Shown here: in pieces, positions 3,751 through 37,143 of the stretch
Position numbering within the stretch: the stretch's first letter is position 1
How the letters are laid out: each line of letters starts with the position of its first letter
Origin: an uncultured Methanosarcinales archaeon
GTDB taxonomy: Archaea > Nanobdellota > Nanobdellia > Woesearchaeales > GW2011-AR9
DNA: 64,000 nt
Direction of reading: 5' to 3'
NCBI GenBank assembly: GCA_964464055.1
Contig: CAYXEO010000002.1
Coordinates: 22,145-86,144 of the forward strand
The notes under the pieces: model-generated
The model's input: only the letters and a program-made list of their open reading frames with translations
What the model was told of the DNA's origin: nothing
The model's database searches: none
Position numbers and translations under genes: made by a program

Positions 3751-4692
3751 GTGATGATGGTAGGACATAAAGAATTTAAAGAAAAAAAAGAAAAGATATT
3801 TCATGATGGGATAAAACCTAAAAAGAAAAGTTTTTTAGACGGAGAAATTGATATTAAGATTAGGCCGAGAAAAATATTAAAAGCGATGGTTTTGATCGCT
3901 TTATTTGCTTTAGTATTTCAATTAGGTAAATTGAGTACAGATACAACAAGTTGTCCGACAGTTGATTGCCCAGTTATAGCAGAAACCGCAGAAGTTACAC
4001 TTGAATCTGCAGAAGCAACGGAATCTTTTATTACTAAAACGGTAAATTTCTTCTCCGGATTGTTAACCGGTGTTTCGGCAACAGGAAGTGAAATTGAAGT
4101 AGTTGTTTTGAATGGATCTACAAATGAAACAACAGCAAATTTAACAGGACAAACAACAGCTGTTGATACTGAAGAAGAAACAACAGAAATTGAAGAAGAA
4201 ATTGAAGATACCCCAGAAGAAGAAGCTGAAGAAGAAGCTGAAGAAGAAATTGAAGAAGAAGCTGAAGAAGAAATTGAAGAAGAAGCTGAAGAAGAAGCTG
4301 AAGAAGAAACTATAATCACTGAATATAGTGCTGTAACTTTAACAATTTCTGATTTAACTTTGGATTGGAAAACAACGTGGGGAAAAGTAACTCGTTTCAA
4401 ATATACTATTAAAAATTCCGAATCTGGAACAATTTTGCCAAGTTATTTTGTGATGTCTATGGCTGCTTATGGTGAAGATGGAGAAAAAACAGTTGATATC
4501 CCCGCAAATTCACAAACAGTGGAATCATCAAGTACAATCTCTTCTTCGGTAATATTGTCCAGTGGCTATGCTTATAACGAAATTGTTACTGGTGATTTAA
4601 CGGATGTAGCAATTAGTTGGAGAATGTATGATGCTGAAGATACTTTAATTGACACTTATACTGCTTCGTTTAATTTGGATGGTGAAGAGTAG
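3751..4692 (+). CDS. membrane-anchored secreted protein with an (EEEAEEEI)n acidic repeat
   Basis: TM helix LKAMVLIALFALVFQL, an NxT-rich region, and a tandem acidic repeat. The antisense ORF 3918..4400 is an artefact of the repeat. Confidence 0.5.
   Translation: MMMVGHKEFKEKKEKIFHDGIKPKKKSFLDGEIDIKIRPRKILKAMVLIALFALVFQLGKLSTDTTSCPTVDCPVIAETAEVTLESAEATESFITKTVNFFSGLLTGVSATGSEIEVVVLNGSTNETTANLTGQTTAVDTEEETTEIEEEIEDTPEEEAEEEAEEEIEEEAEEEIEEEAEEEAEEETIITEYSAVTLTISDLTLDWKTTWGKVTRFKYTIKNSESGTILPSYFVMSMAAYGEDGEKTVDIPANSQTVESSSTISSSVILSSGYAYNEIVTGDLTDVAISWRMYDAEDTLIDTYTASFNLDGEE
4198..4312 (+). repeat. in-frame tandem repeat (12/24-nt units gaagaagctgaagaagaaattgaa...) encoding the EEEAEEEIEEEA tract
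   Basis: Direct reading shows gaagaagctgaagaagaa(a/g)(t/c)tgaagaagaa iterated about 4.5 times. Confidence 0.75.
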
Positions 4693-4828
4693 GAATAAAT
4701 TATGACCTAACACAATAACTAAAGCACAAATGTAATATTAATGTCATATTTTTTGTGAATTTAAATGAGTAAATGATATGGTTCACATTCGTTGTGCTTT
4801 GTACTTTAGTCTAAGGAACTAACAGAAA

Positions 4829-5551
4829 ATGAATGATATATTGGAATTAATCAAGTCCCGAAGAAACATTAAACATTTTTTACCAAAATATGTTTCTTGG
4901 GAAAAAATTGCTCATGTAATAGATGCCGGAAGGCACGCACCTAGTTGTGGTAATATCCAAAATTGGAAGTTTGTAGTTGTTTATGAACATGCTCAGAAAC
5001 AAGCAGTGGCAGATGCTTGTTATGATCAGTATGAAATAATTCAAGCAGGGGCATTAATAGTTGTCTGTGCCGAACCAGAGAAAGCAGAAAGGTATTATAG
5101 TTTGCGTGGAGAACGACTTTATTCTGTACAAAACTGTGCGGCGGCGATTCAAAACATGCTCTTAGAAGCTCATTCATTGGGCCTGGGAACTCGTTGGATT
5201 GGCGGGTTTGATGAAGAAGTTATCAAGTCGATGTTAAGTATTCCTGAGGAGGTTCGTCCACAAGCAATCATTGCTTTAGGTTACTCGAAAGAAGTTCCTG
5301 CTAAACCTCCGAAATATCCTCTTGAATCCGTGGTTTATTTTCAAAGTTGGCGGAACAAAATGCGTGACCCAGCAAAGTATTTGAATGACATAGCTACAAT
5401 CACCGGTAGAAAAATTGATGCTGCGAAAGAAGTTGTGGCTGAAACTAAAGAAAAAGTTGTTACTAAAACAAAACATGTTTCTAAGAAGTTACACGAACGG
5501 ATCAAACACAAAATTAAGAAGAAACTGAAAGAAAAATTGGGCAAAAAGTAG
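4829..5551 (+). CDS. nitroreductase-family flavoprotein with a Lys-rich C-terminal tail
   Basis: The N-terminus LIKSRRNIKHFLPKYVSWEKI...HAPSCGNIQNWKFVVV is the classic nitroreductase fold opening. It is followed by a 50-aa KKxK tail. Confidence 0.7.
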   Translation: MNDILELIKSRRNIKHFLPKYVSWEKIAHVIDAGRHAPSCGNIQNWKFVVVYEHAQKQAVADACYDQYEIIQAGALIVVCAEPEKAERYYSLRGERLYSVQNCAAAIQNMLLEAHSLGLGTRWIGGFDEEVIKSMLSIPEEVRPQAIIALGYSKEVPAKPPKYPLESVVYFQSWRNKMRDPAKYLNDIATITGRKIDAAKEVVAETKEKVVTKTKHVSKKLHERIKHKIKKKLKEKLGKK

Positions 5552-5971: not shown

Positions 5972-7042
5972 ATGGATTTTATGGTAGAACAGGCGATGGA
6001 AAATGCGCCAGAGGACAACAACAATTTTGAAAATATGAGTCAAGCTAATATTAAGGTTATTGGTGTTGGCGGTGCCGGCAATAATATGGTTGGTTGGTTA
6101 TATCGGAAAGGAATTAAAGGTGCAGAAATTATTGCTACAAATACGGATCATCAACATTTAGCAATAACGGGTGCAGATAGAAAGTATTTGATTGGTAAAG
6201 AGTGTACAAGAGGGCTTGGTTGCGGAGGGTTCCCTAGTCGAGGAGCAGAAGCAGCTCAAGAATCTTTGATCACAATTAAAGATTCATTAAAACAATCTGA
6301 TATGGTTTTTGTTTGTGCTGGAATGGGTGGTGGAACAGGAACAGGTGCTGCTCCAGTAGTTGCCCAGGTAGCGAAAGATACTGGTGCGATTGTAATTGGA
6401 ACTGTTACTATGCCTTTCAATATTGAAAGAGCACGGTGTGATAAAGCAGAGTTTGGGTTACAACAGTTAAGACAAGTTTCTGACACAGTTATTGTAATTG
6501 ATAACAACCGGTTAGTACAAATTGCAGGAAATTTACCTATTCAACAGGCGTTCTCTGTGGCTAACGAACTAATCTCAACCATGATTAAAGGAATTGTCGA
6601 AGTTATTGCTGTACCTTCTTTAGTTAACTTGGATTATGCTGACGTTAAGGCAATCATGTCTAACGGAGGTGTAGCTGCGATTGGAGTTGGAAGTTCTGAT
6701 ACTAATAACAGAGTGGACGAAGCTGTCAAAGGTGCATTAAGTAACCCATTACTGGACATCAATTATGATGGTGCAACTGGTGCTTTGATACATATCACTG
6801 GTGGTCCAGACATGACTCTTGATGAAGTATCTAAAATTGGTGAATTGGTAACAGAATCTTTGGATGATGATGCTAATGTGATTTGGGGAGCAAGAGTTGA
6901 TGAACCAATGAAAGGAAAATTAACAGTGATGACAATAATCACTGGCGTAAATAGTCCTTGGATTTTGGGTAAAGTAGATCAACAGAAATCTCAGAAAAGA
7001 GCAGAATCAATCACTAACGAGTTAGGGATAGAACTGGTTTAG
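5972..7042 (+). CDS. ftsZ: cell division GTPase FtsZ
   Basis: GVGGAGNN and the [13 protein letters not shown] tubulin signature, with an NxDxxxL T7 region. A GAGGTGG Shine-Dalgarno-like motif lies 8 nt upstream. Confidence 0.9.
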
Positions 7043-7254
7043 ATGCATTAGTTAAGGCAGAAACAGGCTTTCACTAGCTTGTTTTTTTCTTTTTATTTCT
7101 TTTTATTTCTTGCCTGGGCTAATTCTACTTACGCCACCCCCTGTAAGATAAATACCCAGGCAAGATTTTTTTTCTTTTCTTTTGTTATTAGTTACTTATT
7201 TGTTTTATCTCTATCAGCAAACCTTTATAAAAACATCTTGATTACTTCTTTTTC

Positions 7255-8706
7255 ATGGCAAAAAAAGATATTAAAGGTATCACTGTAAAAAAAGATGAAG
7301 ATTTCAGTGGCTGGTATACACAAGTTATCCAGAAAGCTGATTTAGCAGATTATTCCGCTGTATCAGGATGCATGATTTTTAAACCTACTGCTTGGGCAAT
7401 GTGGGAAAAAGTTATGGAATTAGTTAATGCAAGAATTAAACCGATGGGTGTGAAAAATGTCACCTTTCCTTTATTTATTCCAGAAAATCTTTTGACAAAA
7501 GAAGCAGATCATGTTGAAGGGTTTGCTCCTGAGGTGGCGTGGGTAACTCATGCTGGTGGTTCAAAACTTAGTGAACGACTAGCTGTTAGACCAACTTCTG
7601 AAGCAATCATGTACGATTCTTATGCAAAATGGATCCGTTCATGGCGAGATTTACCTTTAAAATATAATCAGTGGAGTAACGTTGTCAGGTGGGAATTTAA
7701 TAACCCTATTGCTTTTTTTAGAACTAGAGAATTCTTTTTTAATGAAGGGCATACAGTTTTTGCAACTGAGGAAGAAGCTATCGCTGAACAGCAACCAATT
7801 TTGGACATGTACGTAGAAATCTTGGAAGATTATATGGCAATCCCTAGTTTGGTGGGTAAGAAATCTGAGAAAGAGAAATTTGCTGGGGCAGTTTACAGTG
7901 CCAGTATTGAAAACTTTTTACCAAACCATAAAGCTATTCAAGGTCCAATATTTCACCACGATGGACAAAATTTTGCTAAAGCTTACGATATAAAATTTAA
8001 AGGTCAAGATGGAAAAGAAACTTATGCTTGGCAAAACACTTGGGCAATATCTACAAGAATGTTGGGCGTTTTGTTTGCAATCCATGGTGATGATAAAGGT
8101 TTAGTTCTCCCACCAAAAATGGCCCCAACCCAAGTAGTAATTGTACCTATTTTATTTGATAAAACTAAAGCAGAAGTACTTAAAGCAGCAAACAAGATTA
8201 AGAAACAACTGGAAAAAAAAGGCATCTCCGTACACCTTGATGATAGAGATGGTTATTCACCTGGTTGGAAGTTTAATGAATGGGAAGTTAAAGGTATCCC
8301 GGTAAGAATTGAATTAGGTCCAAGAGATTTAGAGGATCATCAAGCGATGGTTTCCAGAAGAGATACTGGTGAAAAACAAGCACTGGAATTGACAGCTTTG
8401 GCAACAGAAATTAAAATTGTTTTAGACAACATCCAATCTAATTTGTTAGAAAAAGCACAGAAACATCTAGACTCAAATATCGTGGAAGTTACAACCCTCT
8501 CCGATGCTAAGAAACAATTGAAAAATAAGAAACTTTTGTTCGCTCCTTGGTGCGGATCAGTTGAATGTGAAGAACAGTTTAAAGCAGATACAACCGCTAA
8601 ATCTTTGAACAGTCCTTTTGACCAACCTAAACTAAATAGTGGTCAGAAATGTTTCGCTTGTGAAAAGAAAGCTGAGAAATGGTTTTATTTTGGGCGAAGT
8701 TATTAA
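7255..8706 (+). CDS. proS: prolyl-tRNA synthetase, archaeal/eukaryal type
   Basis: Class II motifs (FRTREFFFNEGH, GAVYSASIE), a YSPGWKFNEWE anticodon-binding region, and the C-terminal Zn-binding CFACEKK...YFGRSY domain. Confidence 0.9.
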   Translation: MAKKDIKGITVKKDEDFSGWYTQVIQKADLADYSAVSGCMIFKPTAWAMWEKVMELVNARIKPMGVKNVTFPLFIPENLLTKEADHVEGFAPEVAWVTHAGGSKLSERLAVRPTSEAIMYDSYAKWIRSWRDLPLKYNQWSNVVRWEFNNPIAFFRTREFFFNEGHTVFATEEEAIAEQQPILDMYVEILEDYMAIPSLVGKKSEKEKFAGAVYSASIENFLPNHKAIQGPIFHHDGQNFAKAYDIKFKGQDGKETYAWQNTWAISTRMLGVLFAIHGDDKGLVLPPKMAPTQVVIVPILFDKTKAEVLKAANKIKKQLEKKGISVHLDDRDGYSPGWKFNEWEVKGIPVRIELGPRDLEDHQAMVSRRDTGEKQALELTALATEIKIVLDNIQSNLLEKAQKHLDSNIVEVTTLSDAKKQLKNKKLLFAPWCGSVECEEQFKADTTAKSLNSPFDQPKLNSGQKCFACEKKAEKWFYFGRSY

Positions 8707-15053: not shown

Positions 15054-15587
15054 ATGGGAAAAACAAATGTGCCACCAATGACCATTCGTTATGATGGTTT
15101 GTTCGATTTTGATGGGCTTTACGCCGCGATAATAGATTGGGCTAAAAATTATAATTTCCGGTGGCATGAACCGACTTATAAACATAAAGTGCCTTCTAAA
15201 AGTGGTGCTGAACAAGAATATAAGTGGGTAATGGATTTGAAAGTAACAGATTATATATTTTATGAGATTGAGTTAGAAGTTCACGTTTGGGATTTGAAAG
15301 AAATTGAAGTAAAAGATAAAGGAAAAACAAAAACACTTTCTAATGCTCACCTTTACATTAACATGTCTGGGAAAGTTGTATCCAATTGGCAAAATAAATT
15401 TAAAGGAAAAAAGATTTTTGGCCAAGACATGGGTGGTATGTATGAGAAATTTGTTGGAGTAGGAAAAGTTGAAGAACATTTTGATTTGTTATATTATCGG
15501 ATGATAAATTTACAAGCACTAATTAAGACCTTTTTTAATTTGGAAGCGAAAGGTCATGCTTACAAGGATTATTTGAAAGAGAATTAG
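15054..15587 (+). CDS. hypothetical protein, paralogous to the ORF at 34454..35053
   Basis: 177 aa. The N-terminus TIRYDGLFDFDGLYAAIIDWAKNYNFRWHE is collinear with TIKYKDIFDMKAFYESLHEWFLEHDWGDLE of the second copy. No known domain was recognised. Confidence 0.5.
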   Translation: MGKTNVPPMTIRYDGLFDFDGLYAAIIDWAKNYNFRWHEPTYKHKVPSKSGAEQEYKWVMDLKVTDYIFYEIELEVHVWDLKEIEVKDKGKTKTLSNAHLYINMSGKVVSNWQNKFKGKKIFGQDMGGMYEKFVGVGKVEEHFDLLYYRMINLQALIKTFFNLEAKGHAYKDYLKEN

Positions 15588-17488: not shown

Positions 17489-17630
17489 CTTGTTCGGTTT
17501 TATATCTACCGGACTACCCAATGCAAAAAGTTCGTTGATACTCACTTTCTACGTTCTTTTATGAGATGTTATAATGGTTATCTACCTGCTGAGTTTACAA
17601 CTTGTTCGGTTTTATATCTACCGGACTACC
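17489..17630. repeat. two exact 30-nt direct repeats (cttgttcggttttatatctaccggactacc) 82 nt apart in a divergent intergenic region
   Basis: Copies lie at 17489-17518 and 17601-17630. Each contains a TTTATATA TATA-box-like core. Confidence 0.8.
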
Positions 17631-17707
17631 AAAACTTTAATAAGCAATAACTATTTTATAAAAAACAATTAGTATCAAAAAAGGTAGTAAATTAAGAGGG
17701 TGAATAC

Positions 17708-18352
17708 ATGATGAAAGCTTTTTTTAAAAATATATTTGACAAGATTACAATTTCATTTAATCCGTTTCGGAGAAGGAGCCATATTAAACTTGGACTTTAT
17801 GGGCCACCGAACGGAGGGAAATCAACATTAGCAAATCGTATTTGCGAGGATTGGTTAGGTGAAGAAATGTCTACTGTATCTCACGTTGCGCATGAAACAA
17901 GAGAAATCAAAATTAAAGAACAAATTAACATTAAAAATCAAAAAGGTAAGGAATTAACTTTTTCTTTAGTGGATACGCCCGGTATTGCCACTAGAATAGA
18001 TTATGAAGATTTTCTTAAAAAAGGTATGAAGAAAAAGGAAGCAAAATCTCGGGCTAAAGATGCGACCAAAGGAGTCATTGACGCAATTAAATGGTTAGAT
18101 AATATGGAAGCTGTTGTTGTTGTTCTTGATTCAACTAAAGACCCTTATTCACAAGTTAACATTACTATTATCGGAAATTTACAAGCACGAAACATTCCTG
18201 TTTTAATCGCTGCGAACAAAGTAGATTTGAAAAGGTCTAATTTGGATGTTATTAAAGCAGCATTCCCCCAGTATGAAATTATTGGGATCTCTGCTAAGTA
18301 CGGTAAAAATGTGGATGAATTTTATGAACAGTTGTTCAAATTAGCGAAGTAA
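17708..18352 (+). CDS. small GTP-binding protein (P-loop GTPase)
   Basis: G1 GPPNGGKST, G3 DTPG, G4 NKVD, G5 SAK. It is the first gene of a co-oriented three-gene module. Confidence 0.75.
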   Translation: MMKAFFKNIFDKITISFNPFRRRSHIKLGLYGPPNGGKSTLANRICEDWLGEEMSTVSHVAHETREIKIKEQINIKNQKGKELTFSLVDTPGIATRIDYEDFLKKGMKKKEAKSRAKDATKGVIDAIKWLDNMEAVVVVLDSTKDPYSQVNITIIGNLQARNIPVLIAANKVDLKRSNLDVIKAAFPQYEIIGISAKYGKNVDEFYEQLFKLAK

Positions 18353-18428
18353 ACTCTATACTAAATAATAACATTTATAAAATAAAAAATAATACTAATT
18401 ATAAAAAAACGAGGTAATGTAGATAAAA

Positions 18429-18842
18429 ATGGTTACGTTTCAATATATCCCATTTCAAGAAATTGAAAATTTATCTTCTGCAAAGAGGGTGCACAAATTA
18501 TTAAATATTGTTAAAGAAAATAAGATTGTTTTAATGGAAGGTCGGTTAAAAAAGCAAGAGGAAGCTGATTTGATTGAAATTACCATGGAAGAAATTTCTA
18601 ACAAATTTAAAGGGATTGAGTTAAGTGTTATTTACCCTAACAAAGATAAACAAGACGCTATGCAAAAAATGAAAGGTGTATTTGCTAACGTCATTTTGGG
18701 AGATCGACAAGGGATGACTATTGTTGGACCTGCTTCTGTAGTAAAACGAATTGAACAAAACCCTGATAAAATCGAATTATTTACTAACGAAAATGGTAAA
18801 AAGAAACCAACTAGGAAACGTTCCAAGAGAAGGAAGAAATAG
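18429..18842 (+). CDS. hypothetical protein (GTPase-associated; DUF2073-like by gene context) with a basic KR tail
   Basis: 137-aa ORF 76 nt downstream of the GTPase, ending in a PTRKRSKRRKK tail. Family assignment is from remembered archaeal gene neighbourhoods, not from motifs. Confidence 0.45.
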   Translation: MVTFQYIPFQEIENLSSAKRVHKLLNIVKENKIVLMEGRLKKQEEADLIEITMEEISNKFKGIELSVIYPNKDKQDAMQKMKGVFANVILGDRQGMTIVGPASVVKRIEQNPDKIELFTNENGKKKPTRKRSKRRKK

Positions 18843-18901
18843 GTCTTTTTATTTTTTTAAGAATAGAAACTATTAAATAATACCTTGACTTTACATTTAC
18901 C

Positions 18902-19294
18902 ATGCCACACCAATGCGTTCGATGTAACACGCTCTATCCTGATGGAGCGCAAGAAATTCTTAAAGGATGTAGTTGTGGTGCTCGTTTATTCTTTTATATT
19001 AAGAAAAAGAAGTTGGAAGAAAGTAAGAAAATAATTGAAGAACTTACTGACGACGAAAAGAAACATATTGAACAAGATGTAACCGAAATTTTGCACGTTA
19101 AACAAGAGCAAGATAGTCCCGTTGTTTTAGATATTGAATCTGTTAACATGCTTAGATCCGGACAATATGAATTAGATTTAGTAAAACTGTTCAAGAAAGA
19201 CCCCTTAGTGTTCAAGTTAGAAGAAGGCAAGTACGTCATCGATCTTCCACAGGTATTTAAAGAAGAACGTGAGAAGGAACAAAAAAATAATTAG
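18902..19294 (+). CDS. Zn-ribbon protein (C4) with an acidic coiled-coil tail
   Basis: The N-terminus CVRCNTLYPDG...CSCGARLF forms a C-x2-C...C-x-C zinc ribbon. This is the third gene of the GTPase module. Confidence 0.5.
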   Translation: MPHQCVRCNTLYPDGAQEILKGCSCGARLFFYIKKKKLEESKKIIEELTDDEKKHIEQDVTEILHVKQEQDSPVVLDIESVNMLRSGQYELDLVKLFKKDPLVFKLEEGKYVIDLPQVFKEEREKEQKNN

Positions 19295-22199: not shown

Positions 22200-22715
22200 T
22201 TATTTGATTTTGTTCTTGACAGCTTTATCACTGATGATTGCACTGTGACCAGTTTTGTCTTCGATAATGATTTTTAATTTTTCTCTACCAACCAAAACCT
22301 TACCCAATTTCTTGATTATGTTTTTAGCTTTCTTTTTAGCAGCAGGGTCATCTTCTGATTCAGCAGTAGATTCAATTATTTTTTTTACTTTCTCTATCAA
22401 ACCTTCCACGTTAGTTACATAACCTTCGGAAGCTGGTCCAGGAGACATAGTAATAATATGTGGGATTTTAACTGTTGCTTCACCACCTTTAACAATTTTA
22501 ATGTTCAAATCATTGTCTGATTCAACTTCTAAAGTGTATTTACAAGGTTCTTTTTTCTCTGCTGGTTCTACATCAGAAACTCTATAACCGCAAGCGCTAC
22601 AATCCATTGAAAGAATAAATACTCTACCAAAATAAGGTATTTCTACTTCTTCTTCTCTTAAAGTCAGTTGGTTTTCACCACACATTTGACACATTTGTCC
22701 TTTAACTTCTGCCAT
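22200..22715 (-). CDS. ZPR1-type zinc-finger protein (archaeal COG1779-like)
   Basis: CQMCGE...EIPYFGRVFILSMDCSACGYRVSDVEP matches the ZPR1 Zn-finger (C-x2-C ... IPyF ... C-x2-CGy). A beta-rich A-domain follows. Confidence 0.65.
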   Translation of the reverse strand: MAEVKGQMCQMCGENQLTLREEEVEIPYFGRVFILSMDCSACGYRVSDVEPAEKKEPCKYTLEVESDNDLNIKIVKGGEATVKIPHIITMSPGPASEGYVTNVEGLIEKVKKIIESTAESEDDPAAKKKAKNIIKKLGKVLVGREKLKIIIEDKTGHSAIISDKAVKNKIK

Positions 22716-22970
22716 ACGCTGGAAAAAGAGAAGTTGCTTTAAAAAGATTTTGTTTTGTCATAAGTGAATTGTTGGCAACATAAAGTATTATTTCTTTTGT
22801 CCAAACTTTAATATATCTCTTAAAAAAACATAAAAAGTTAGATTGAAAAAGAGATATGTGCTTTAATTTTCAATAAAACATCCCTATCTAACTATTTATG
22901 TTCGTTTTGTACTCTTTTTGGAAACAAAACCTTTTTAAAAGAGCGAACTTCTTTTTATTCTAGTTGCATG

Positions 22971-23097
22971 GCGATGTAGCTTAACCTGGTCATAGCGCCA
23001 CGCTCATAAACATGAGCTATGAGACATTTTCGTCGATGACAAAAATTGGCTTATTGGGTTACGTGGAGGTTGGGGGCTCAAATCCCCCCATCGCCAT
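22971..23097 (+). tRNA. tRNA-Met/Ile2 (anticodon CAT) with a ~52-nt intron after position 37
   Basis: Acceptor GGCGATG/CATCGCC with discriminator A. Anticodon stem CCACG/CGTGG with loop CTCATAA. T-arm GGGGG-CTCAAAT-CCCCC. Intron ~23010-23061 pairs ATGAG with the loop CTCAT (relaxed BHB). Confidence 0.8.
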
Positions 23098-23187
23098 ACT
23101 TTTTCACGTCAATGTAGTACCGAAGTATAAATTCAAAAACAAATTTTATATTTGTCTGTCACTTATGATTTTCGTGAATAACTATTG

Positions 23188-23271
23188 CCAACGTGGCACA
23201 ATCTGGTACTGCGCAAGCCTGGAAAGCTTGTTTCCTTTTGGATATCCCGGTTCAAATCCGGGCGTTGGCGC
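23188..23271 (+). tRNA. tRNA-Ser (anticodon GGA), long variable arm, no intron
   Basis: Acceptor GCCAACG/CGTTGGC with discriminator G. Anticodon stem CAAGC/GCTTG with loop CTGGAAA. Variable arm TCC-TTTT-GGA. T-arm CCCGG-TTCAAAT-CCGGG. Confidence 0.85.
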
Positions 23272-23334
23272 TCTTTTTTTCTTAATTTTTAATCAGAGGG
23301 TTGATAAGGGCAGACTGCCCTTATGTGAGGAGCC

Positions 23335-23356
23335 CGGGCGTTGGCGCTTTTTTTCA
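23335..23356 (+). repeat. duplicate of the tRNA-Ser 3' end (ccgggcgttggcgct plus T-run), 61 nt downstream of the gene
   Basis: An exact 15-nt copy of 23259-23273 followed by a T7 run. It is preceded by the hairpin GGGCAGACTGCCC. Confidence 0.7.
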
Positions 23357-23454
23357 TTTAATATTTAATTAGAAAATATTTGGTGTTATTACTTTTTTCC
23401 TCCTCCTTATAAACAACACTTTTATATATCATAAAAGTTTCTTTTTATTTGTAA

Positions 23455-26400
23455 ATGTATTATAAAAAGAAAGGTGAATTAGTTAGTTTAGTAATTATTA
23501 CGTTTTTAATTTTGGTAAGTGGTATTTTGTTCTGGCAACATGATAGTATTAGTGGTGCAATAACTATAATAAATCCCTCATTGGAATTAGAACCACAAAC
23601 CGTTAATGGCACTTTTGGAACAGGGATTGGTTTAGATGCTGAAGAATTAGTTACTGAAATTAATCATGTTGGCCTTGCTTTGGTTGAAGATGATGGTGAA
23701 GATGATTTTAGTACACAAAATATTGGCGATGGGCTTTTTACCGGAGTGATTAATTTGTCTAATGCAGATGCACAATTTAATGGTGTTTTTGCAAGCGATA
23801 ATGCCGGTAATGCAATAACTTTTGCCGATTTAAATAATGATGGTTTTGCAGATTTTGTAATTGGTGCTACCGGTGCAACCGCTAATGGTAATTCTGCAGC
23901 AGGAAAAGTTTATGTGGTTTATGGCCCGGCAAACGAAGAATTAAATTTGTCTGACGCAGATATTGTTTTGAACGGTGTTGCTGAAGATGTTCAAGCGGGG
24001 AATGCTTTATCTTCAGGAGATTTTAATAATGATGGTATTGATGATTTGTTAATTGGTGCGGAGAGTGCCAATACCGCAAACAAGGGAGAGTCCTATATTA
24101 TTTTTGGTTCATTAAGTTTGGCACAAGAAATTAATTTGTCTGATGCAAATGTGACTTTTGAAGGGATAGATCACCAAGATAGATCTGGGTCTGCCGTGTC
24201 TTCAGGAGACATTAATTGTGATGGTATCGAAGACATTTTAATAGGTGCACCTTATGCAACGGGTGGTGCATCTTATTCAGGTGAAATGTATGTTGTCTAT
24301 GGGTCTTCAATTTTGTCTGGGACAATTGATTTGGTAGATGCAAATGTGACTTTTTTTTCAGATTCTTCATCTGGTTTTTTAACAAATAGAAGAGGAATTA
24401 CAACTGGAGACATGAATAATGACGGGTTTGATGACATTTATGTTGTTGGAACGAATAATAATGGTGATGGGTATTTTATTTATAATAATTGTTCTTTAAG
24501 TTCTTCTATCAATTTAACTGTTGATGTTAATTTTACCATGGGTGGAGTTGGTGAACGAGCAATAGTTATGGGTGATATAAATAATGATGGGTATTTGGAT
24601 TTGATTGGTGGAGATTATGAATTTAATAATGGTACGGTCAATATTTTTTTAGGTTCTGCTGATTTAAGCGGTTCAAAATATTTATCGCAAGACAATATTA
24701 CCATCGAAGGATTAAATTCAGAACAGTTTGGTTATGATGTTGCAGTAGGAGATTATAATGGTGATGATATTATTGATTTATTCGTAAGTGCAAATTATGA
24801 AGATACTAATGGTAACATTGATTCGGGAGCATTACACATTTTTTATGGACCTATTGTTAATGGTACAAACATTTATTCTAATCAGTCAAATGTTACTTTT
24901 AATGGTGTTTCTGCAAGTGATTATGCAGGGGCACTAATTGTTAATGATTTTAACAACGATAATTCCGCAGACATTTTAATTGGTGCTTATTGTGCAGACC
25001 CAAATGGGAATTCGCAAGCAGGGGAAGTTTATTTAGTAAATGGATTGATCACATGTAATTATATCAATTTCAACACTACACTTAATCAAGACATCTCTGC
25101 TAATGGTGAATGTTTCATTATTAATGCATCCAACATTTACCTTGACGGAAACGGGCATATTATAACCGGAAATGGGTCAGGTGTGGGGATCAATTTAACC
25201 AATGTGGAAAATGTTACTATTCGGAATTTTAATGTACTAAATTTTAGTGAGGGGATTTATTTTGACAATTCTGCTAATAACAATAATTTCACAGATGGTG
25301 TTGTGGGCGATAATGCTAATTTAGATATTAACATTACTAACAATGGTGGTTCAAACAACATTTTTGCTAATGTTACTTTTGATAAAACAAGTACTTCAAT
25401 TGGAACTAGTAGTTCTATTTTTGTCAAATGGTATACTGATGTTTACATTAATGATACTTCTGGAAACCCATTGGTTTCAGTTAATGTTACTGGTTATAAT
25501 TTAACTAATGATTTGGAACAAAGTCAATCAACAGATGTAAATGGGGAGGCAAGATTATCTTTGATAGAATATTATCAAGATAATTCTGGTAAAACTTATC
25601 ACACAAATCATACTATTAACGTAAGTAAATCTCTTTATAGTCAAAGTTCACAACAAATAAATTTAACAGAAACTAATAATACGCAATTGACTTACACTTT
25701 AGAAGTGGGTTGCGGCGAGATTGGCGAAGACATTACTTTTTCTCCAACAACATTTAATATTAACGGTTCTTGTTTTACTATTGGTGCGGATAACCTTGTA
25801 ATTGATGGTGCTGGATTAACTATACTTGGTAACACTTCCGGAGCAGGTATTAACATAACCGGGTACAACAATATTACATTTACTAACTTTGATATTCAAA
25901 ATTTTAGTAATGGTATTTATCTTGGTGCAACAAACAATACTTATTTTTATAATTCTGAAATCGGTGCGTCCCATATTAAAGACGTTTTTGTAAATGATAA
26001 CGCAGGCGTCAATAATACTTTTGTTAATGTCACTTTTGACAGAGATAAAACACAGATTGGAACAGACAGTGACATTTTTGTTAAATGGTATGTTGACATT
26101 TTAGTGATGAATAATGGTTTTATAGTTTCTGATGCAAATGTTTCTGCATACAATTCTTCCACAGAATTAGAAGTTAGTCAACTGACAAATGCAACTGGAC
26201 AAATTCAATTCACTTTATTAGATTTCACTGAAACTAGTACCGGGAAAATTCACTCCACCCCCCATAATATAACTGTAAATAAAACTGGCTATAATTTACA
26301 AAGTTGGGAAGTTAATTTGACACAAACAAATAGCACCTTTCATCAATTTGATATTTCTGGTGATTTATCTTGTGGCACAATAAGTTCAAGTATCCTTTTA

Positions 26401-29400
26401 CAAAACCAAACCATTTATCAAAATGGTACTTGCTTTACTATTGGGGCAGATAATATTATTATTCACGGAGGCGGCACCACTTTAATTGGTAACGGAACAG
26501 GAAATGGTTTTCATTTTGCTGAGAGAACTAATGTAACTTTAACAAATTTTAATATTGTCAATTTTTCAAACGGTCTTTATTCTAATGGATCTGACGATTG
26601 TACGTTTAGTTCTTTAACTTTTAACAATAATAGCGTAGCAATGAATTGGTACAATTCTTCAAGTAATAATTTTGAGAATGGAACTATAACAAATAGTACA
26701 GAATTCGATTTAACTTTAGCTGTTGGAACAGACAATTATTTCACTAATATTACTTTTAATAACACTCATTTAAATATTTCAGAAGACGGTCATTTTACCA
26801 CTAGGTGGTTTTTGGATTTTGAAGTAACAGATGTTTCAGACGCAGTTTTAGAAGATGTGAAAATAACTTTGTTTAATGCTGAAAATGAAACTGTTGATGT
26901 GGTGACATCTTCTGCCACAGGAATTGCACAAATGATAATTTCTGAATTTTTCATTGATGAATTAGGTTACATTTATTTGCCGCCTTACCATTTGACAATC
27001 TCAAAAGCTGGTTATATCCCTGAAACTTACTCTCCTCTTGACATTTATGAAGAAAACCAAGAATTAGATTTTTCTTTAACAGAAATTTCTTGTGGGACAA
27101 CTTTAACAACAGACATTGTTTTAACGGAAAATCTTCAATCTTCTGGTACTTGTTTTGTTATTGGTGCGGATAATTTAACAATTGATGGTGCTGGTTATTC
27201 AATTAATGGTACTCTTTCAAATGACGGTATTCGTTCTATTGATCACACTGGTTTAACAATTACAAATTTGACTATAACGAATATGGGGCAAGGAATTAAT
27301 TTGGTCGGAACTAATACGAGTACTGTAAGAGATGTTAATTGTTCGGGTAATGATTATGGGTTAATATTAATTAATTCGTCAGATAATGCTATTTATGATT
27401 CTTTATTTTCAAACAATAATCATAATGATATTTATGTTAATAGTGAATTAGAAACTAACAATTTCTTAATTAATGATTCTTTTGCTCCTGCTGAAATAAA
27501 TGTCACCGGTAATGCAAATATTTTTCAAAAATGGTATTTAGAAGTAAATGTTGTTTTTGGAGATGAAGATTACAATTTACCTTTAGCAAATGTAACTGCT
27601 TATTTTAATTCAACAGGGTTGACAGATGAAAGTAGATTAACTAATACTAATGGCTTAGTCAATTTGGAAATAACAGAAACAAAAATAAATTCTTCGACCA
27701 CAACCTATTTTCCACCACATAATTTAACTGTTTTTTATAATCATTCTGCTATTGGGCAAGTGTCAAATTCAACAGTAATCAATATCTCAGAAACTAATAA
27801 TACTGAAGTAGAATTATGGCTAGATATAACTTGTACGCCTCCAGCAGACAATTTAGAAATAACTTCTAATACTAATCTTTGCCCAGGTGTTTGGGAACTT
27901 GTGGATGGTGGTAGTTACGGGGTAATTAAGATCGCATCTACCGCTAATGTAACCTGTATAGATACAGTTTTAGTTGGTGATGGTTCAGGGCGTGCATTTG
28001 TGGTTAGAAATGCAGAGGATGTCCAGATAAATGGGTGTACCTTACAAGATTATTTAATAGGTGTATCTCCAGATAATATGGAAATTAATGGGTTAGTGGT
28101 TAATGATATTAGTATGTCAAATGTGGATATTGGTATTTCAACAAGTAATTTAGGTGAATCATTTACTCTTTCAAATTTTGCAATTGAATTAACTGAGAGT
28201 GGTTATGGTGTTGGTTCTCAGTTAGATACTGATTCAAATCATTTAATTGAAAATGGTACGTTCTCTGGCGGTGAAAAAGGTATCTTTTTTAGTGGTGGAA
28301 CGTGGAACAACGCACGAATACATAATGTTACTTTTATAGGCCAGGGGAAAACTGGATACGGAATTTACAAGGGAAAAGGTTCAAATAACAATATTACTAA
28401 TTGTACATTCCAAGATTATCGATATGGTGTTTATTGGTATTCCGGAAGTAATAACAACATTTATTACAACACTTTTGAAGATGTTCGAGAATATAATGTT
28501 TGGTCAGTAAGTTCTGGTAATGTATTTAACACTTCTGTAAATATAACGTATGTGAACGAGTCAGGGAATTTAACAAATGCAACTGTTGCATGGGGGAATT
28601 CGTGGGATGACTATTGTGAGTTAGATTTAGAAGATACTAATAACGATGATTATGCAGATAGTGGAGATGATTACCCTTATAGTCCATCAACCACTGATAA
28701 AGTTTTAGGTTATGTGACTGATTGGGGTCCTAAGGTTTTATCTTGTCCGTCCGAAACTCCCGAAGAAGCAAGAGAAGTAAGAGGGAGTAGCGGTTCTAAA
28801 GCAGAAACCACAGAAACCACTGAAGAAATACCAACAGAAACACCAGCGAAACAACCAACACTTAAAAAAGAAACACAAGTAGGACTAACTCCTGACGAAA
28901 TTTATTTGGCAGAAGATGTAAAAAAACATCTTAAAACAGAAGCAACTACTACAACTACTGAACAAGGAACAACCCTTTTAGTAACTTTAGAAAATACTGG
29001 TACAAAATCTATGCAACTGTTCCCAGAAATTTTCCAAGAAATTGACGACCCCTATTTTATTGTTACCAAGAAGACCTTGGGACATGAGAACTCCTTTTTT
29101 AGTAAACTTTCGCACCTTTCTTATTCCGAAAACTCTGTCGCTGGAAGATTATTGGAAGCAACCATAACTAACCCTGAACAAATCCTTCTTGCACCAGGGG
29201 AAACTGTCGAGAAAACGTTACAAATCAACGAAGGTCTGGCAATCCCTAGACAATTAAAAATCCAATTTACAACTTTCGGTGAAACCGTTTATGAGAAAGA
29301 AATTGAAATTGAACAGAAAGCACTTTCAGGTACTGCGGTTGATTTGGATGTTGAAAATAATTTGTTAGACATTTATGCAGTTATTGTCCCTGCCCAAATT

Positions 29401-29784
29401 TCACAACAGTTCGAAGAATATTATGCTAAACAAACAAATAAATTAACAGGTGCGGCAGTTTATGACAAGTTACAAAATCGTAATGAATACAAACTAGAGT
29501 TAAGTTTAGTAAAAATCGTCCCAGATGAAAATAAACCGTCTCAGAACAATTTACCCGGTAAATATCAATTAATTCAAAAAATTGCTAAATCCTTTTCACA
29601 AGAGAAACCTAATTTTAATGATTTATATGGGCCTTACTTTATTAAAAAAGATCAAAGTTTGATTTTTGCTCAGCAACTGAAATATAATCCAGCGACTTAC
29701 AATAGTGATTATTTAATTAAAACTAAAATTTTCTTGGATGATACCCCAATAGTAGAGAATGAATTCGAGATTGAGATGAAGTAG
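23455..29784 (+). CDS. giant extracellular protein (2109 aa): FG-GAP/integrin-alpha-like repeats plus right-handed parallel beta-helix repeats, heavily N-glycosylated
   Basis: N-terminal signal anchor. Seven or more FG-GAP-like DxNxDGxxD loops (DFNNDGIDDLLIGA, GDINCDGIEDILIGAP, GDMNNDGFDDIYVVG...). Repeated IxGxGxTIxG...NxxNITFTNFxI beta-helix units with dense NxT sequons. Confidence 0.8.
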   Translation: MYYKKKGELVSLVIITFLILVSGILFWQHDSISGAITIINPSLELEPQTVNGTFGTGIGLDAEELVTEINHVGLALVEDDGEDDFSTQNIGDGLFTGVINLSNADAQFNGVFASDNAGNAITFADLNNDGFADFVIGATGATANGNSAAGKVYVVYGPANEELNLSDADIVLNGVAEDVQAGNALSSGDFNNDGIDDLLIGAESANTANKGESYIIFGSLSLAQEINLSDANVTFEGIDHQDRSGSAVSSGDINCDGIEDILIGAPYATGGASYSGEMYVVYGSSILSGTIDLVDANVTFFSDSSSGFLTNRRGITTGDMNNDGFDDIYVVGTNNNGDGYFIYNNCSLSSSINLTVDVNFTMGGVGERAIVMGDINNDGYLDLIGGDYEFNNGTVNIFLGSADLSGSKYLSQDNITIEGLNSEQFGYDVAVGDYNGDDIIDLFVSANYEDTNGNIDSGALHIFYGPIVNGTNIYSNQSNVTFNGVSASDYAGALIVNDFNNDNSADILIGAYCADPNGNSQAGEVYLVNGLITCNYINFNTTLNQDISANGECFIINASNIYLDGNGHIITGNGSGVGINLTNVENVTIRNFNVLNFSEGIYFDNSANNNNFTDGVVGDNANLDINITNNGGSNNIFANVTFDKTSTSIGTSSSIFVKWYTDVYINDTSGNPLVSVNVTGYNLTNDLEQSQSTDVNGEARLSLIEYYQDNSGKTYHTNHTINVSKSLYSQSSQQINLTETNNTQLTYTLEVGCGEIGEDITFSPTTFNINGSCFTIGADNLVIDGAGLTILGNTSGAGINITGYNNITFTNFDIQNFSNGIYLGATNNTYFYNSEIGASHIKDVFVNDNAGVNNTFVNVTFDRDKTQIGTDSDIFVKWYVDILVMNNGFIVSDANVSAYNSSTELEVSQLTNATGQIQFTLLDFTETSTGKIHSTPHNITVNKTGYNLQSWEVNLTQTNSTFHQFDISGDLSCGTISSSILLQNQTIYQNGTCFTIGADNIIIHGGGTTLIGNGTGNGFHFAERTNVTLTNFNIVNFSNGLYSNGSDDCTFSSLTFNNNSVAMNWYNSSSNNFENGTITNSTEFDLTLAVGTDNYFTNITFNNTHLNISEDGHFTTRWFLDFEVTDVSDAVLEDVKITLFNAENETVDVVTSSATGIAQMIISEFFIDELGYIYLPPYHLTISKAGYIPETYSPLDIYEENQELDFSLTEISCGTTLTTDIVLTENLQSSGTCFVIGADNLTIDGAGYSINGTLSNDGIRSIDHTGLTITNLTITNMGQGINLVGTNTSTVRDVNCSGNDYGLILINSSDNAIYDSLFSNNNHNDIYVNSELETNNFLINDSFAPAEINVTGNANIFQKWYLEVNVVFGDEDYNLPLANVTAYFNSTGLTDESRLTNTNGLVNLEITETKINSSTTTYFPPHNLTVFYNHSAIGQVSNSTVINISETNNTEVELWLDITCTPPADNLEITSNTNLCPGVWELVDGGSYGVIKIASTANVTCIDTVLVGDGSGRAFVVRNAEDVQINGCTLQDYLIGVSPDNMEINGLVVNDISMSNVDIGISTSNLGESFTLSNFAIELTESGYGVGSQLDTDSNHLIENGTFSGGEKGIFFSGGTWNNARIHNVTFIGQGKTGYGIYKGKGSNNNITNCTFQDYRYGVYWYSGSNNNIYYNTFEDVREYNVWSVSSGNVFNTSVNITYVNESGNLTNATVAWGNSWDDYCELDLEDTNNDDYADSGDDYPYSPSTTDKVLGYVTDWGPKVLSCPSETPEEAREVRGSSGSKAETTETTEEIPTETPAKQPTLKKETQVGLTPDEIYLAEDVKKHLKTEATTTTTEQGTTLLVTLENTGTKSMQLFPEIFQEIDDPYFIVTKKTLGHENSFFSKLSHLSYSENSVAGRLLEATITNPEQILLAPGETVEKTLQINEGLAIPRQLKIQFTTFGETVYEKEIEIEQKALSGTAVDLDVENNLLDIYAVIVPAQISQQFEEYYAKQTNKLTGAAVYDKLQNRNEYKLELSLVKIVPDENKPSQNNLPGKYQLIQKIAKSFSQEKPNFNDLYGPYFIKKDQSLIFAQQLKYNPATYNSDYLIKTKIFLDDTPIVENEFEIEMK

Positions 29785-37029: not shown

Positions 37030-37143
37030 CGGGCCTGCGAAGATTTGAACTCCGGATCTACAGCTATCTTCAGAGTGATAAAAAATCATTTCTTTTTTCG
37101 CTCTTAGGAGGCTGTCGCCCTATCCAGGCTAGGCTACAGGCCC
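37030..37143 (-). tRNA. tRNA-Arg (anticodon CCT) with a ~39-nt intron after position 37
   Basis: Minus strand. Acceptor GGGCCTG/CAGGCCC with discriminator G. Anticodon stem ACAGC/GCTGT with loop CTCCTAA. T-arm CGGAG-TTCAAAT-CTTCG (one G.U). Intron ~37065-37103. Confidence 0.8.

Follow-up and report, generated by a model that had tools for sequence, protein, structure and literature searches.

A conserved three-gene module

This study concerns a module of three genes in a 64-kb stretch of DNA (GC content, ~33%) from an uncultured lineage of Woesearchaeota (DPANN), in which the module is known from sequence. The whole stretch is called the window here, and all coordinates are window positions. 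A small GTPase gene is followed on the same strand by a gene for a DUF2073 protein and a gene for a zinc-ribbon protein, for which three sets of names are in use:

17708..18352, + strand: dipA (arvA, oapA), single-domain GTPase of 214 amino acids (from the list of open reading frames)
18429..18842, + strand: dipB (arvB, oapB), DUF2073 protein of 137 amino acids (from the list of open reading frames and Pfam PF09846)
18902..19294, + strand: dipC (arvC, oapC), C4 zinc-ribbon protein of 130 amino acids (from the list of open reading frames and Pfam PF09845)

The genes are co-oriented and lie close together without overlapping, with spacers of 76 nucleotides between dipA and dipB and 59 nucleotides between dipB and dipC. 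The list of open reading frames agrees exactly with the three tightly spaced, co-oriented genes of the original prediction, which had been made from the letters alone. That prediction had also pointed to an archaeal neighborhood composed of a GTPase, DUF2073, and a DUF2072 zinc ribbon, and the Pfam matches bore out this assignment, including which gene is which. The second open reading frame matches PF09846 (OapB, formerly DUF2073; cut-off, 27 bits) with 65.0 bits over profile positions 2-100 of 104, and the third matches PF09845 (OapC, formerly DUF2072; cut-off, 23 bits) with 91.8 bits over profile positions 1-132 of 133. It is almost certain that the module is the Woesearchaeota orthologue of one archaeal operon that has been called OapABC, ArvABC, and DipABC. 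The system has thus been described before, and its presence in Woesearchaeales has been catalogued as well.

Do the three genes recur together in other genomes? A species-level genome collection was scanned with a cross-phylum DipB alignment; 279 hits were confirmed, and the best 80, all of them from Woesearchaeota/Nanoarchaeota, were retained. The synteny of these loci was scored with purpose-built hidden Markov models, and 77 loci were testable for the adjacency of dipA to dipB and of dipB to dipC. Among these best 80 of 279, the GTPase gene lies immediately 5′ of dipB at all 77 testable loci, and dipC lies immediately 3′ of dipB at 75 of the 77 and within ~830 nucleotides at the remaining two. 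Of the 74 Woesearchaeota/Nanoarchaeota loci that could be tested in full, 72 have the whole triad when strict criteria are applied, and all 74 have it when the criteria are loose. This arrangement is far beyond chance, and the tight linkage in other genomes upholds the earlier view of a conserved archaeal module in which the GTPase, DUF2073, and DUF2072 zinc-ribbon genes travel together. Across the related loci, the median spacers are 83 nucleotides (dipA-dipB) and 42.5 nucleotides (dipB-dipC), and the median identity of the GTPase to the window protein is 79% (79 loci). The closest GTPase relatives, at 80-89% identity, are proteins named Woesearchaeota or Nanoarchaeota, which places the source of the window among the DPANN archaea. 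One relative with an 86%-identical GTPase has kept the triad among flanking genes that are mostly different, and another with an 88%-identical GTPase has also kept it. Identical copies sit on metagenome contigs.

Homologues of the GTPase were further searched for among 1.84 billion cluster representatives. The named cluster members of 20 distant representatives belong to Methanobacterium, Thor/Hodarchaeales, Thermoplasmatota, Altiarchaeota, and Nanohaloarchaea, and no haloarchaeon was among them; likewise, a tblastn search of a plasmid collection for a haloarchaeal GTPase homologue gave no match. Methanobacterium has a 52%-identical GTPase in a tightly packed dipA-dipB-dipC arrangement. An Asgard contig (Thor/Hodarchaeales) has dipA-dipB only, with no dipC at the locus, and the genes of the most distant GTPase relatives (Thermoplasmatota, a brine metagenome, and Altiarchaeota) are not adjacent to dipB and dipC. 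This pattern matches the published figures, which put ArvB directly 3′ of ArvA in 93% of genomes, with ArvC no more than two genes away in 78% (PMC10927574), as well as the ‘loner’ dipC reported in some Asgard archaea (PMC13228585).

In Haloferax volcanii, the operon HVO_3014/3013/3012 has been named OapABC (2019), ArvABC (PNAS 2024, PMC10927574), and DipABC (bioRxiv May 2026, PMC13228585). ArvB corresponds to COG3365/DUF2073 and ArvC to COG3364/DUF2072 (PMC10927574 supplement). The published survey counted 1,666 ArvA homologs in 14 phyla, including seven DPANN phyla (PMC10927574), and its ArvA genome table lists Woesearchaeales 256 times (Mills et al., PMC10927574). The accession GCA_018662865 and specific names of metagenome-assembled genomes (MAGs) were not found in the supplement of PMC10927574. 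The window module shares with the Haloferax and Archaeoglobus operons its three families, their order, and their placement on one strand. Its genome likewise encodes an FtsZ, its DipB is a DUF2073 protein of ~130 amino acids, and its DipC begins with a zinc ribbon and has a conserved C-terminus, with a variable center in between. The length of the GTPase and the positions of its P-loop and DTPG motif also agree: 214 amino acids, GPPNGGKS at 32-39, and DTPG at 89-92 in the window, against 213 amino acids, GPPNAGKT at 31-38, and DTPG at 87-90 in the published HVO_3014 (PMC13228585), whose gene is 642 nucleotides long (PMC10927574). On the other hand, the window DipC has 130 amino acids, which fits the published non-haloarchaeal length of 131.5 ± 19.6 amino acids (PMC13228585), while the Haloferax DipC has 330. 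The window operon also differs from both in the extra polybasic tail of its DipB, in its location away from orc1 and an origin, in a lineage-specific promoter motif at its 5′ side, and in its uncultured DPANN host.

The GTPase and its two partner proteins

All five GTPase boxes, which the original prediction had called complete, could be read from the protein: G1 is GPPNGGKS (residues 32-39, nucleotides 17801-17824), G2 is T64 within HETR, G3 is DTPG (residues 89-92, nucleotides 17972-17983), G4 is NKVD (residues 170-173, nucleotides 18215-18226), and G5 is SAK (residues 195-197). A long α2 helix spans residues 109-132. The start codon of dipA may be the second ATG; a 213-residue form of the protein exists (P0002), and its relatives begin with MVK.

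In Pfam, the GTPase matches generic models only, with 54.8 bits for MMR_HSR1 (cut-off, 21.9). It falls below the NCBIfam equivalog cut-offs, being 4- to 8-fold short of those for Der (64.1 against 306.7), Era (58.7 against 237), YsxC/EngB (25.7 against 124.45), and HflX (29.2 against 216.75), and it scores 15.2 against 280 for Obg. These scores agree with the earlier placement of the protein outside the translation GTPases and make it neither an EngB nor an HflX, Era, or Der. The search of the cluster representatives returned 534 homologues at E ≤ 0.001 and 51 at E ≤ 1e-30; with so few homologues, the GTPase forms a compact family of its own. Among the sequences of solved structures, it matches only Der, Era, and MnmE. 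An AlphaFold2 (AF2) model was built from a cross-phylum alignment of 30 sequences, which was also used for finding invariant columns. The model is a bare G domain with a mean predicted local distance difference test score (pLDDT) of 88.4, and its top fold matches are MnmE, EngA, Era, and FeoB. Arf and Sar1 rank lower, and Ras, Rab, Arf, and MglA structures are also among the significant matches. The Pfam Arf score is 16.5 bits, under the cut-off of 22.3 for PF00025, and the Ras family is under its cut-off as well.

The catalytic Gln is lacking (DTPGI), and so is Gly2 for myristoylation. In all sequences in which the DxPG motif was found, the residue following it is I, L, V, F, or M, and never Gln. 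In MnmE, FeoB, and EngA, a potassium site is formed with an Asn in GxxNxGKS/T and another Asn five residues after the G1 Lys (PMC3466195). N35 and N43 of the window GTPase are these two Asn residues, and both are invariant in the cross-phylum alignment. From these residues it is predicted that the family is a potassium-activated, Gln-less (‘HAS’) GTPase of the TrmE-Era-EngA-YihA-Septin group, which would have gained a membrane-targeting peptide. The expected catalytic chemistry is that of the potassium-activated MnmE/Era/EngA/FeoB type, in which the catalytic Gln is absent, and not the kind in which Arf or Ras is paired with an arginine-finger GTPase-activating protein (GAP). Potassium is unmentioned in PMC10927574 and PMC13228585. 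The signature argues against the popular ‘Arf-like’ description and would predict how DipB can and cannot stimulate hydrolysis. The likeness to the HAS-GTPases (MnmE, Era, EngA/Der, and FeoB) thus lies in the best matches, both Asn residues, the hydrophobic residue in place of Gln, and the MMR_HSR1 domain. In contrast to them, DipA belongs to no named equivalog family, lacks the KH, MnmE N-terminal, and transporter domains, and carries a candidate membrane-targeting peptide and the long α2 helix; by analogy with its orthologues, its role would be in membrane cycling and division rather than with the ribosome or tRNA. At NCBI, relatives of the GTPase are entered as ‘Era-like GTP-binding protein’ or ‘50S ribosome-binding GTPase’, labels that mislead about the role of the protein. 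Some GTPase relatives are longer (P0241, 424 amino acids; P0256, 679; P0260, 421; P0273, 393), and the query matches two stretches of each. They could be tandem duplications or G-domain fusions.

Three segments of DipA and DipB carry a concentration of basic residues:

17711..17761, + strand: N-terminal cationic, aromatic-rich extension of the GTPase, MKAFFKNIFDKITISFN, candidate membrane-targeting sequence (helical wheel and family comparison)
18636-18713, + strand: internal basic loop of DipB, ~residues 70-95, corresponding in position to the membrane-binding loop described in the literature (sequence)
18795-18839, + strand: polybasic tail of DipB, residues 123-137 (sequence)

The hydrophobic residues of the N-terminal extension occupy 40-180 degrees on a helical wheel. 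Of 20 family members tested from different phyla, 17 have such an extension, with a net charge of +3 to +8; in most members, it is 14-29 residues long. A membrane-targeting role is suggested for it by the liposome data on AfDipA and the effect of its L7R substitution, which are described below.

The C-terminus of DipB is GKKKPTRKRSKRRKK, in which 11 of the final 15 residues are Lys or Arg. The original prediction had read this end as a nuclear-localization-like tail. The basic tail itself is real: at least six Lys or Arg among the last 15 residues were found at 70 of the 80 Woesearchaeota/Nanoarchaeota loci. It is absent from several Woesearchaeota and from the Methanobacterium and Asgard examples. 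Since the tail is patchy and seen only in Woesearchaeota, it is a lineage-specific addition and not a nuclear-localization signal. It may add affinity for membrane or DNA. The AF2 model of DipB, which was built from a shallow alignment (30 sequences; mean column identity, 75%) and used for the fold search only, has SepF as its best fold matches, and no roadblock or longin was among the 60 listed matches of this low-confidence model. SepF was also the best match in PMC10927574 and PMC13228585, and DipB is modeled as having a SepF-like α/β core. Both proteins act in FtsZ-based division and both bind membrane. However, no sequence similarity between them is detectable, Pfam gives OapB only, and DipB lacks the N-terminal membrane-targeting sequence of SepF; instead, it has the internal basic loop, plus the tail in Woesearchaeota, and acts on a GTPase partner. 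About 30 third-party annotation records of MAGs titled ‘uncultured Methanosarcinales archaeon’ (L013, L020-L022, L025-L029, and others) have a DipB 70-84% identical to the Woesearchaeota protein. The titles of these records appear to be mislabeled, the gene context of dipB being that of Woesearchaeota.

DipC has an N-terminal C4 zinc ribbon with the cysteines C5, C8, C23, and C25 (CxxC...CxC; nucleotides 18914-18976); these four cysteines and the PF09845 match confirm what had been read from the sequence at the outset. A variable, K/E-rich center (residues 33-70) separates the ribbon from a conserved C-terminal domain (residues 71-121), and the isoelectric point is 5.5. When the Methanobacterium DipC is aligned, both ends are conserved and the charged center is missing. 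The charged center is the short counterpart of a long disordered region in Haloferax. In an Altiarchaeota locus (L009), a GTPase with 45% identity is followed, in place of DipB and DipC, by a 271-residue protein with no Pfam match (6670-7485 of that locus, + strand). It is possibly a fusion of DipB and DipC, a divergent partner, or an unrelated gene.

Proposed roles in division-site placement and vesicle formation

It had been stated in the original prediction that no function is known for this neighborhood. This statement is out of date, as knockout, overexpression, imaging, and biochemical data exist for the Haloferax orthologues (PMC10927574, PMC13228585). The ‘origin-associated proteins’ OapABC adjoin orc1, and the oapA mutant study, as cited in PMC10927574 and PMC13228585, could assign no distinct function to OapA (Wolters et al. 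2019). ArvA was later found to be enriched in extracellular vesicles; its knockout gave 2.9-fold fewer vesicles and its overexpression 3.5-fold more, while the arvB knockout gave 3.1-fold fewer and the arvC knockout 1.65-fold more (PMC10927574). In the same study, ArvA was termed Arf-like on the basis of an HHpred match and a model overlay (PMC10927574). The most recent work found that removing any one of the dip genes gives rise to minicells and mislocalized FtsZ1, FtsZ2, and SepF, and that DipA, DipB, and DipC oscillate from pole to pole, which K37A and D87A abolish (PMC13228585). AfDipA attaches to liposomes via an N-terminal amphipathic peptide when GTP, but not GDP, is supplied, and L7R lowers the binding; AfDipB releases DipA from liposomes and stimulates its GTPase (PMC13228585). 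DipB has a basic membrane-binding loop and binds DNA in vitro, and DipC acts as a cargo-like FtsZ1 inhibitor whose overexpression blocks FtsZ1 filaments (PMC13228585). The Dip module was reported only in archaea that use FtsZ (PMC13228585). The window carries such a gene outside the operon:

5972..7042, + strand: ftsZ, 356 amino acids (Pfam Tubulin, 152 bits; FtsZ_C, 115 bits)

FtsZ is presumed to be the target system of the Dip module.

By orthology with the Haloferax and Archaeoglobus proteins, the window module probably works in the way proposed for DipABC, and I hold this reading with moderate confidence. DipA-GTP would bind the cytoplasmic membrane via its short cationic, aromatic-rich N-terminal peptide, and the membrane-bound DipA would recruit the zinc-ribbon DipC. 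The SepF-like DipB would then engage DipA, stimulate GTP hydrolysis, and free DipA from the membrane. Repeated cycles would generate a spatial pattern that excludes the FtsZ ring from the wrong places, a functional analogue of bacterial MinD/MinE/MinC made from unrelated proteins. In the proposed logic, DipA resembles MinD, a membrane binder with an amphipathic helix, DipB resembles MinE, the activator, and DipC resembles MinC, the FtsZ inhibitor. Nevertheless, there is no kinship in sequence or fold; DipA is a TRAFAC-type GTPase and not a ParA/MinD ATPase, so the Min system is an analogue only. A disturbed membrane cycle would also alter the release of small membrane-bound bodies, and probably for this reason the same genes have been scored as vesicle genes. 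The Dip reading is favored since it has direct biochemistry and imaging behind it, explains the SepF-like fold, and fits the co-occurrence with FtsZ, including the window ftsZ. Two observations are consistent with it: ftsZ lies within the window, and most family members from different phyla have a cationic hydrophobic extension at the N-terminus.

Several points weigh against this reading. The orthology of the window GTPase to HVO_3014 would rest on motifs, length, synteny, intermediates, and published lists; indirect support for it comes from the 52%-identical Methanobacterium member with its triad and from the repeated listing of Woesearchaeales in the ArvA table. The lead of MnmE and Era over Arf in the fold ranking is ~3 Z units, among folds that are very similar. 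The N-terminal extension has no confident helix in the AF2 model (pLDDT, 44-52), and its hydrophobic moment of 0.56 is not above that of composition-matched shuffles (p = 0.54). The pLDDT of the DipB model is low (49.7). Woesearchaeota cells are considered very small; pole-to-pole oscillation in them may be impossible or different in form, and an oscillator at that scale is hard to envisage. The potassium dependence is a prediction, and the AfDipA assays were all performed in 150 mM KCl (PMC13228585). The Dip work is a single preprint of 2026 on Haloferax and Archaeoglobus, and the DPANN archaea named in its survey are Nanohaloarchaeota only (PMC13228585). The peer-reviewed study that came before it ascribes these genes to vesicle formation and found that the arvB and arvC knockouts act in opposite directions (PMC10927574).

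A role in vesicle formation is a doubtful alternative. According to it, the module is ArvABC, in which insertion of the N-terminal helix of a GTP-bound, Arf-like GTPase drives the budding of vesicles, ArvB is a positive factor akin to a guanine nucleotide exchange factor (GEF), and ArvC is a negative factor akin to a GAP; in a DPANN episymbiont, the vesicles could serve exchange with the host. The peer-reviewed Haloferax phenotypes, the enrichment of ArvA in vesicles, and the wide range of phyla (PMC10927574) speak for this, as do the use of an oapA deletion by others as a vesicle-poor strain (PMC12091111) and the cationic hydrophobic peptide at the N-terminus of the window GTPase. With Arf1 and Sar1, DipA shares a small G domain and would share a membrane-inserting peptide N-terminal to it and a GTP-dependent affinity for membrane, besides the vesicle-yield phenotypes in Haloferax. 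However, the Arf tests fail: the Pfam score is under the cut-off (16.5 against 22.3), the catalytic Gln and Gly2 are missing, and in the fold ranking MnmE, EngA, Era, and FeoB come ahead of Arf and Sar1. ArvB is SepF-like, and both partners are unlike the GEFs and GAPs of eukaryotes, including the Sec7 GEFs and ArfGAPs. DipB acts in the reverse sense to a GEF, in that it stimulates hydrolysis and takes the GTPase off the membrane (PMC13228585). Since all three deletions result in minicells and misplaced division rings, the vesicle yield could be secondary (PMC13228585). The Arv and Dip readings are not mutually exclusive, and the two published functions, vesicles and division-site placement, are not reconciled.

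A bolder reading, which is speculative and improbable, is that the Woesearchaeota module is not a Min-like oscillator but a potassium-activated, dimerization-activated membrane switch of the MnmE/Era type. The membrane cycle would be linked to the nucleoid or RNA by the polybasic tail of its SepF-like partner, and one ancestral machine would underlie both the choice of the division site and vesicle or minicell budding, perhaps during contact with a host; a ~170-residue protein encoded at many related loci (described below) could be a fourth component.

It is very improbable that DipA is a GTPase for ribosome assembly or RNA modification, similar to Era, Der, or MnmE, with two small RNA-binding cofactors. 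Such a role would fit the top matches in Pfam, NCBIfam, the PDB sequences, and the fold search (MMR_HSR1, Der, Era, and MnmE), the NCBI names of the relatives, the annotation of COG3364 as a predicted nucleic-acid-binding zinc-ribbon protein, and the translation-related diphthine synthase and ZPR1 among the neighboring genes. Against it, the scores are 4- to 8-fold under the equivalog cut-offs, the protein consists of a bare G domain that lacks KH and other RNA-binding domains, and the 534 homologues among 1.84 billion representatives are a family of its own. The similarity reflects the GTPase superfamily and the catalytic chemistry, not the cellular role, and in experiments the orthologues bind membrane, oscillate, and affect division (PMC13228585).

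A function at or near oriC with Orc1/Cdc6 is scarcely credible. The Haloferax operon adjoins orc1 and the main origin, which is the source of the Pfam names, DipB binds DNA in vitro (PMC10927574, PMC13228585), and a perfect 30-nucleotide repeat lies 5′ of the window GTPase gene. Nonetheless, there is no Orc1/Cdc6-type Pfam match in the scanned open reading frames of the window, no Orc1/Cdc6 among the recurrent flanking families of ~72 related loci, and no inflection of the cumulative GC skew near 17.5 kb; the repeat is confined to this genome, and the oapA mutant study, as cited in the later papers, assigned no distinct function. Equally hard to credit is the framing of the original prediction, a Ras/Arf-type GTPase with a roadblock/longin partner as GAP or GEF (MglA/MglB-like) that is related to eukaryotic systems: a small GTPase is conserved beside small partner genes, Ras, Rab, Arf, and MglA are among the significant fold matches, and a few Asgard genomes have members, but the hydrophobic substitution for the catalytic Gln and the potassium-site Asn are those of the MnmE/Era group, MnmE, EngA, Era, and FeoB are the nearest folds, the Ras and Arf Pfam scores are under the cut-offs (16.5 against 22.3 bits for Arf), and the partner is SepF-like.

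The Dip reading, if correct, raises the question of what job an oscillator would have in very small cells, given that DipB is encoded in at least 279 Nanoarchaeota/Woesearchaeota species-level genomes, that triad synteny is near-perfect among the best 80 loci, and that the window has an FtsZ. What is added here to the published work is minor, namely the potassium-GTPase prediction, the breadth of conservation in Woesearchaeota, the DipB tail, the operon-specific promoter motif, and the lack of adjacency to an origin.

Upstream elements and neighboring genes

The 5′ region of the GTPase gene and the spacer between dipA and dipB contain the following elements:

17628..17643, + strand: promoter-like element ACCAAAACTTTAATAA, resembling a B recognition element and TATA box, ~65 nucleotides 5′ of the GTPase start; the sole match in the window with at most two mismatches
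17636-17643, + strand: TTTAATAA within the promoter-like element
17696..17702, + strand: Shine-Dalgarno-like GAGGGTG, 5 nucleotides before the GTPase ATG
18372..18415, + strand: element in the dipA-dipB spacer, consisting of TATA-like CATTTATAAAA, then ATACTAATTA, then a GAGGT ribosome-binding site

Nearly all Woesearchaeota loci have a 17-nucleotide element, ACCAAAAACTTTAA(T/G)AA, at 45-65 nucleotides 5′ of the start of the GTPase gene. Its 13-mer core CCAAAAACTTTAA is present in 60 of 90 loci, exactly once per locus and always 5′ of the GTPase gene. The upstream element, which is specific to the operon, may be a dedicated promoter or operator. A protein of ~216 amino acids with a Fis-type HTH_8 domain is encoded directly 5′ of the GTPase gene on the same strand in L091 (3188-3838, +) and in six or seven other Woesearchaeota loci; it is a candidate regulator acting at the conserved upstream motif. 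Ribosome-binding sites resembling GAGGGGTG occur at the same position in most related loci.

In the dipA-dipB spacer, the motif CATTTAAAAAC..AAAGATTTACTA..AAAGAGGT is repeated in many related loci; a TATA-like box was found in 65 and a Shine-Dalgarno-like site in 57 of 76 spacers. The spacer element is possibly an internal promoter of dipB. In Haloferax, a minor internal transcription start site has been reported in the operon (PMC13228585), which parallels the spacer motif. The dipB-dipC spacer of related loci is either shorter than 10 nucleotides, or ~60 nucleotides long with a TATA-like box and without a ribosome-binding site.

The divergent intergenic region 5′ of the GTPase gene contains a perfect direct repeat of 30 nucleotides, CTTGTTCGGTTTTATATCTACCGGACTACC, at 17489-17518 and 17601-17630. 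The copies are 112 nucleotides apart, the similarity extends over 39 nucleotides at 92%, and each copy could form a hairpin of 6-7 base pairs. No such repeat would be expected by chance. It was found only in identical contigs of this genome and was absent from 88 related loci. An origin box, a small RNA, and a conserved operator were considered for the repeat and rejected, as there was no Rfam or tRNA match, relatives lack it, and the folding z-score was −1.96. A conserved hairpin 5′ of the promoter motif was likewise rejected: z-scores below −2 were obtained for 15 of 68 loci against 4 of 68 for a control region, the paired comparison of minimum free energies gave p = 0.33, and the hairpin does not belong to the core of the module.

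Genes near the module in the window are housekeeping genes, namely those for prolyl-tRNA synthetase, a MutL-like protein, a Ski2-like helicase, diphthine synthase, pyruvate phosphate dikinase, ZPR1, FtsZ, several tRNA synthetases, and CDC48. An unannotated family of ~170 amino acids, with no Pfam or NCBIfam match, is encoded divergently and directly 5′ of the GTPase gene in 32 related loci (for example, L004 9328-9840 and 8744-9325, both on the − strand). Its window homologue (15054-15587, + strand) is 2 kb away and on the other strand. This family is possibly a fourth partner or mere local synteny. A ZPR1 zinc-finger gene is convergent to the triad right after dipC in 29 related loci (L004 11484-11996, − strand; L091 5591-6103, − strand). 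In the window, ZPR1 is at 22200-22715 (− strand), and the pyruvate phosphate dikinase gene is inserted between dipC and ZPR1. In the Asgard locus L007, a 466-residue protein with faint AAA_16/AAA_22 matches (4079-5479, + strand) is encoded 520 nucleotides 5′ of the GTPase gene and is possibly Orc1/Cdc6-like.

Farther downstream in the window, Rfam detected tRNAs of 127 nucleotides (22970-23096, + strand) and 114 nucleotides (37030-37143, − strand) that ARAGORN missed; they are probably intron-containing archaeal tRNAs. An open reading frame of 118 amino acids at 23012-23368 is likely spurious, since it overlaps two tRNA genes. A 2,109-residue protein with FG-GAP, β-helix, and NosD repeats (23455-29784, + strand) is probably a giant surface protein, and a 1,238-residue subtilase with PKD domains is encoded at 42443-46159.

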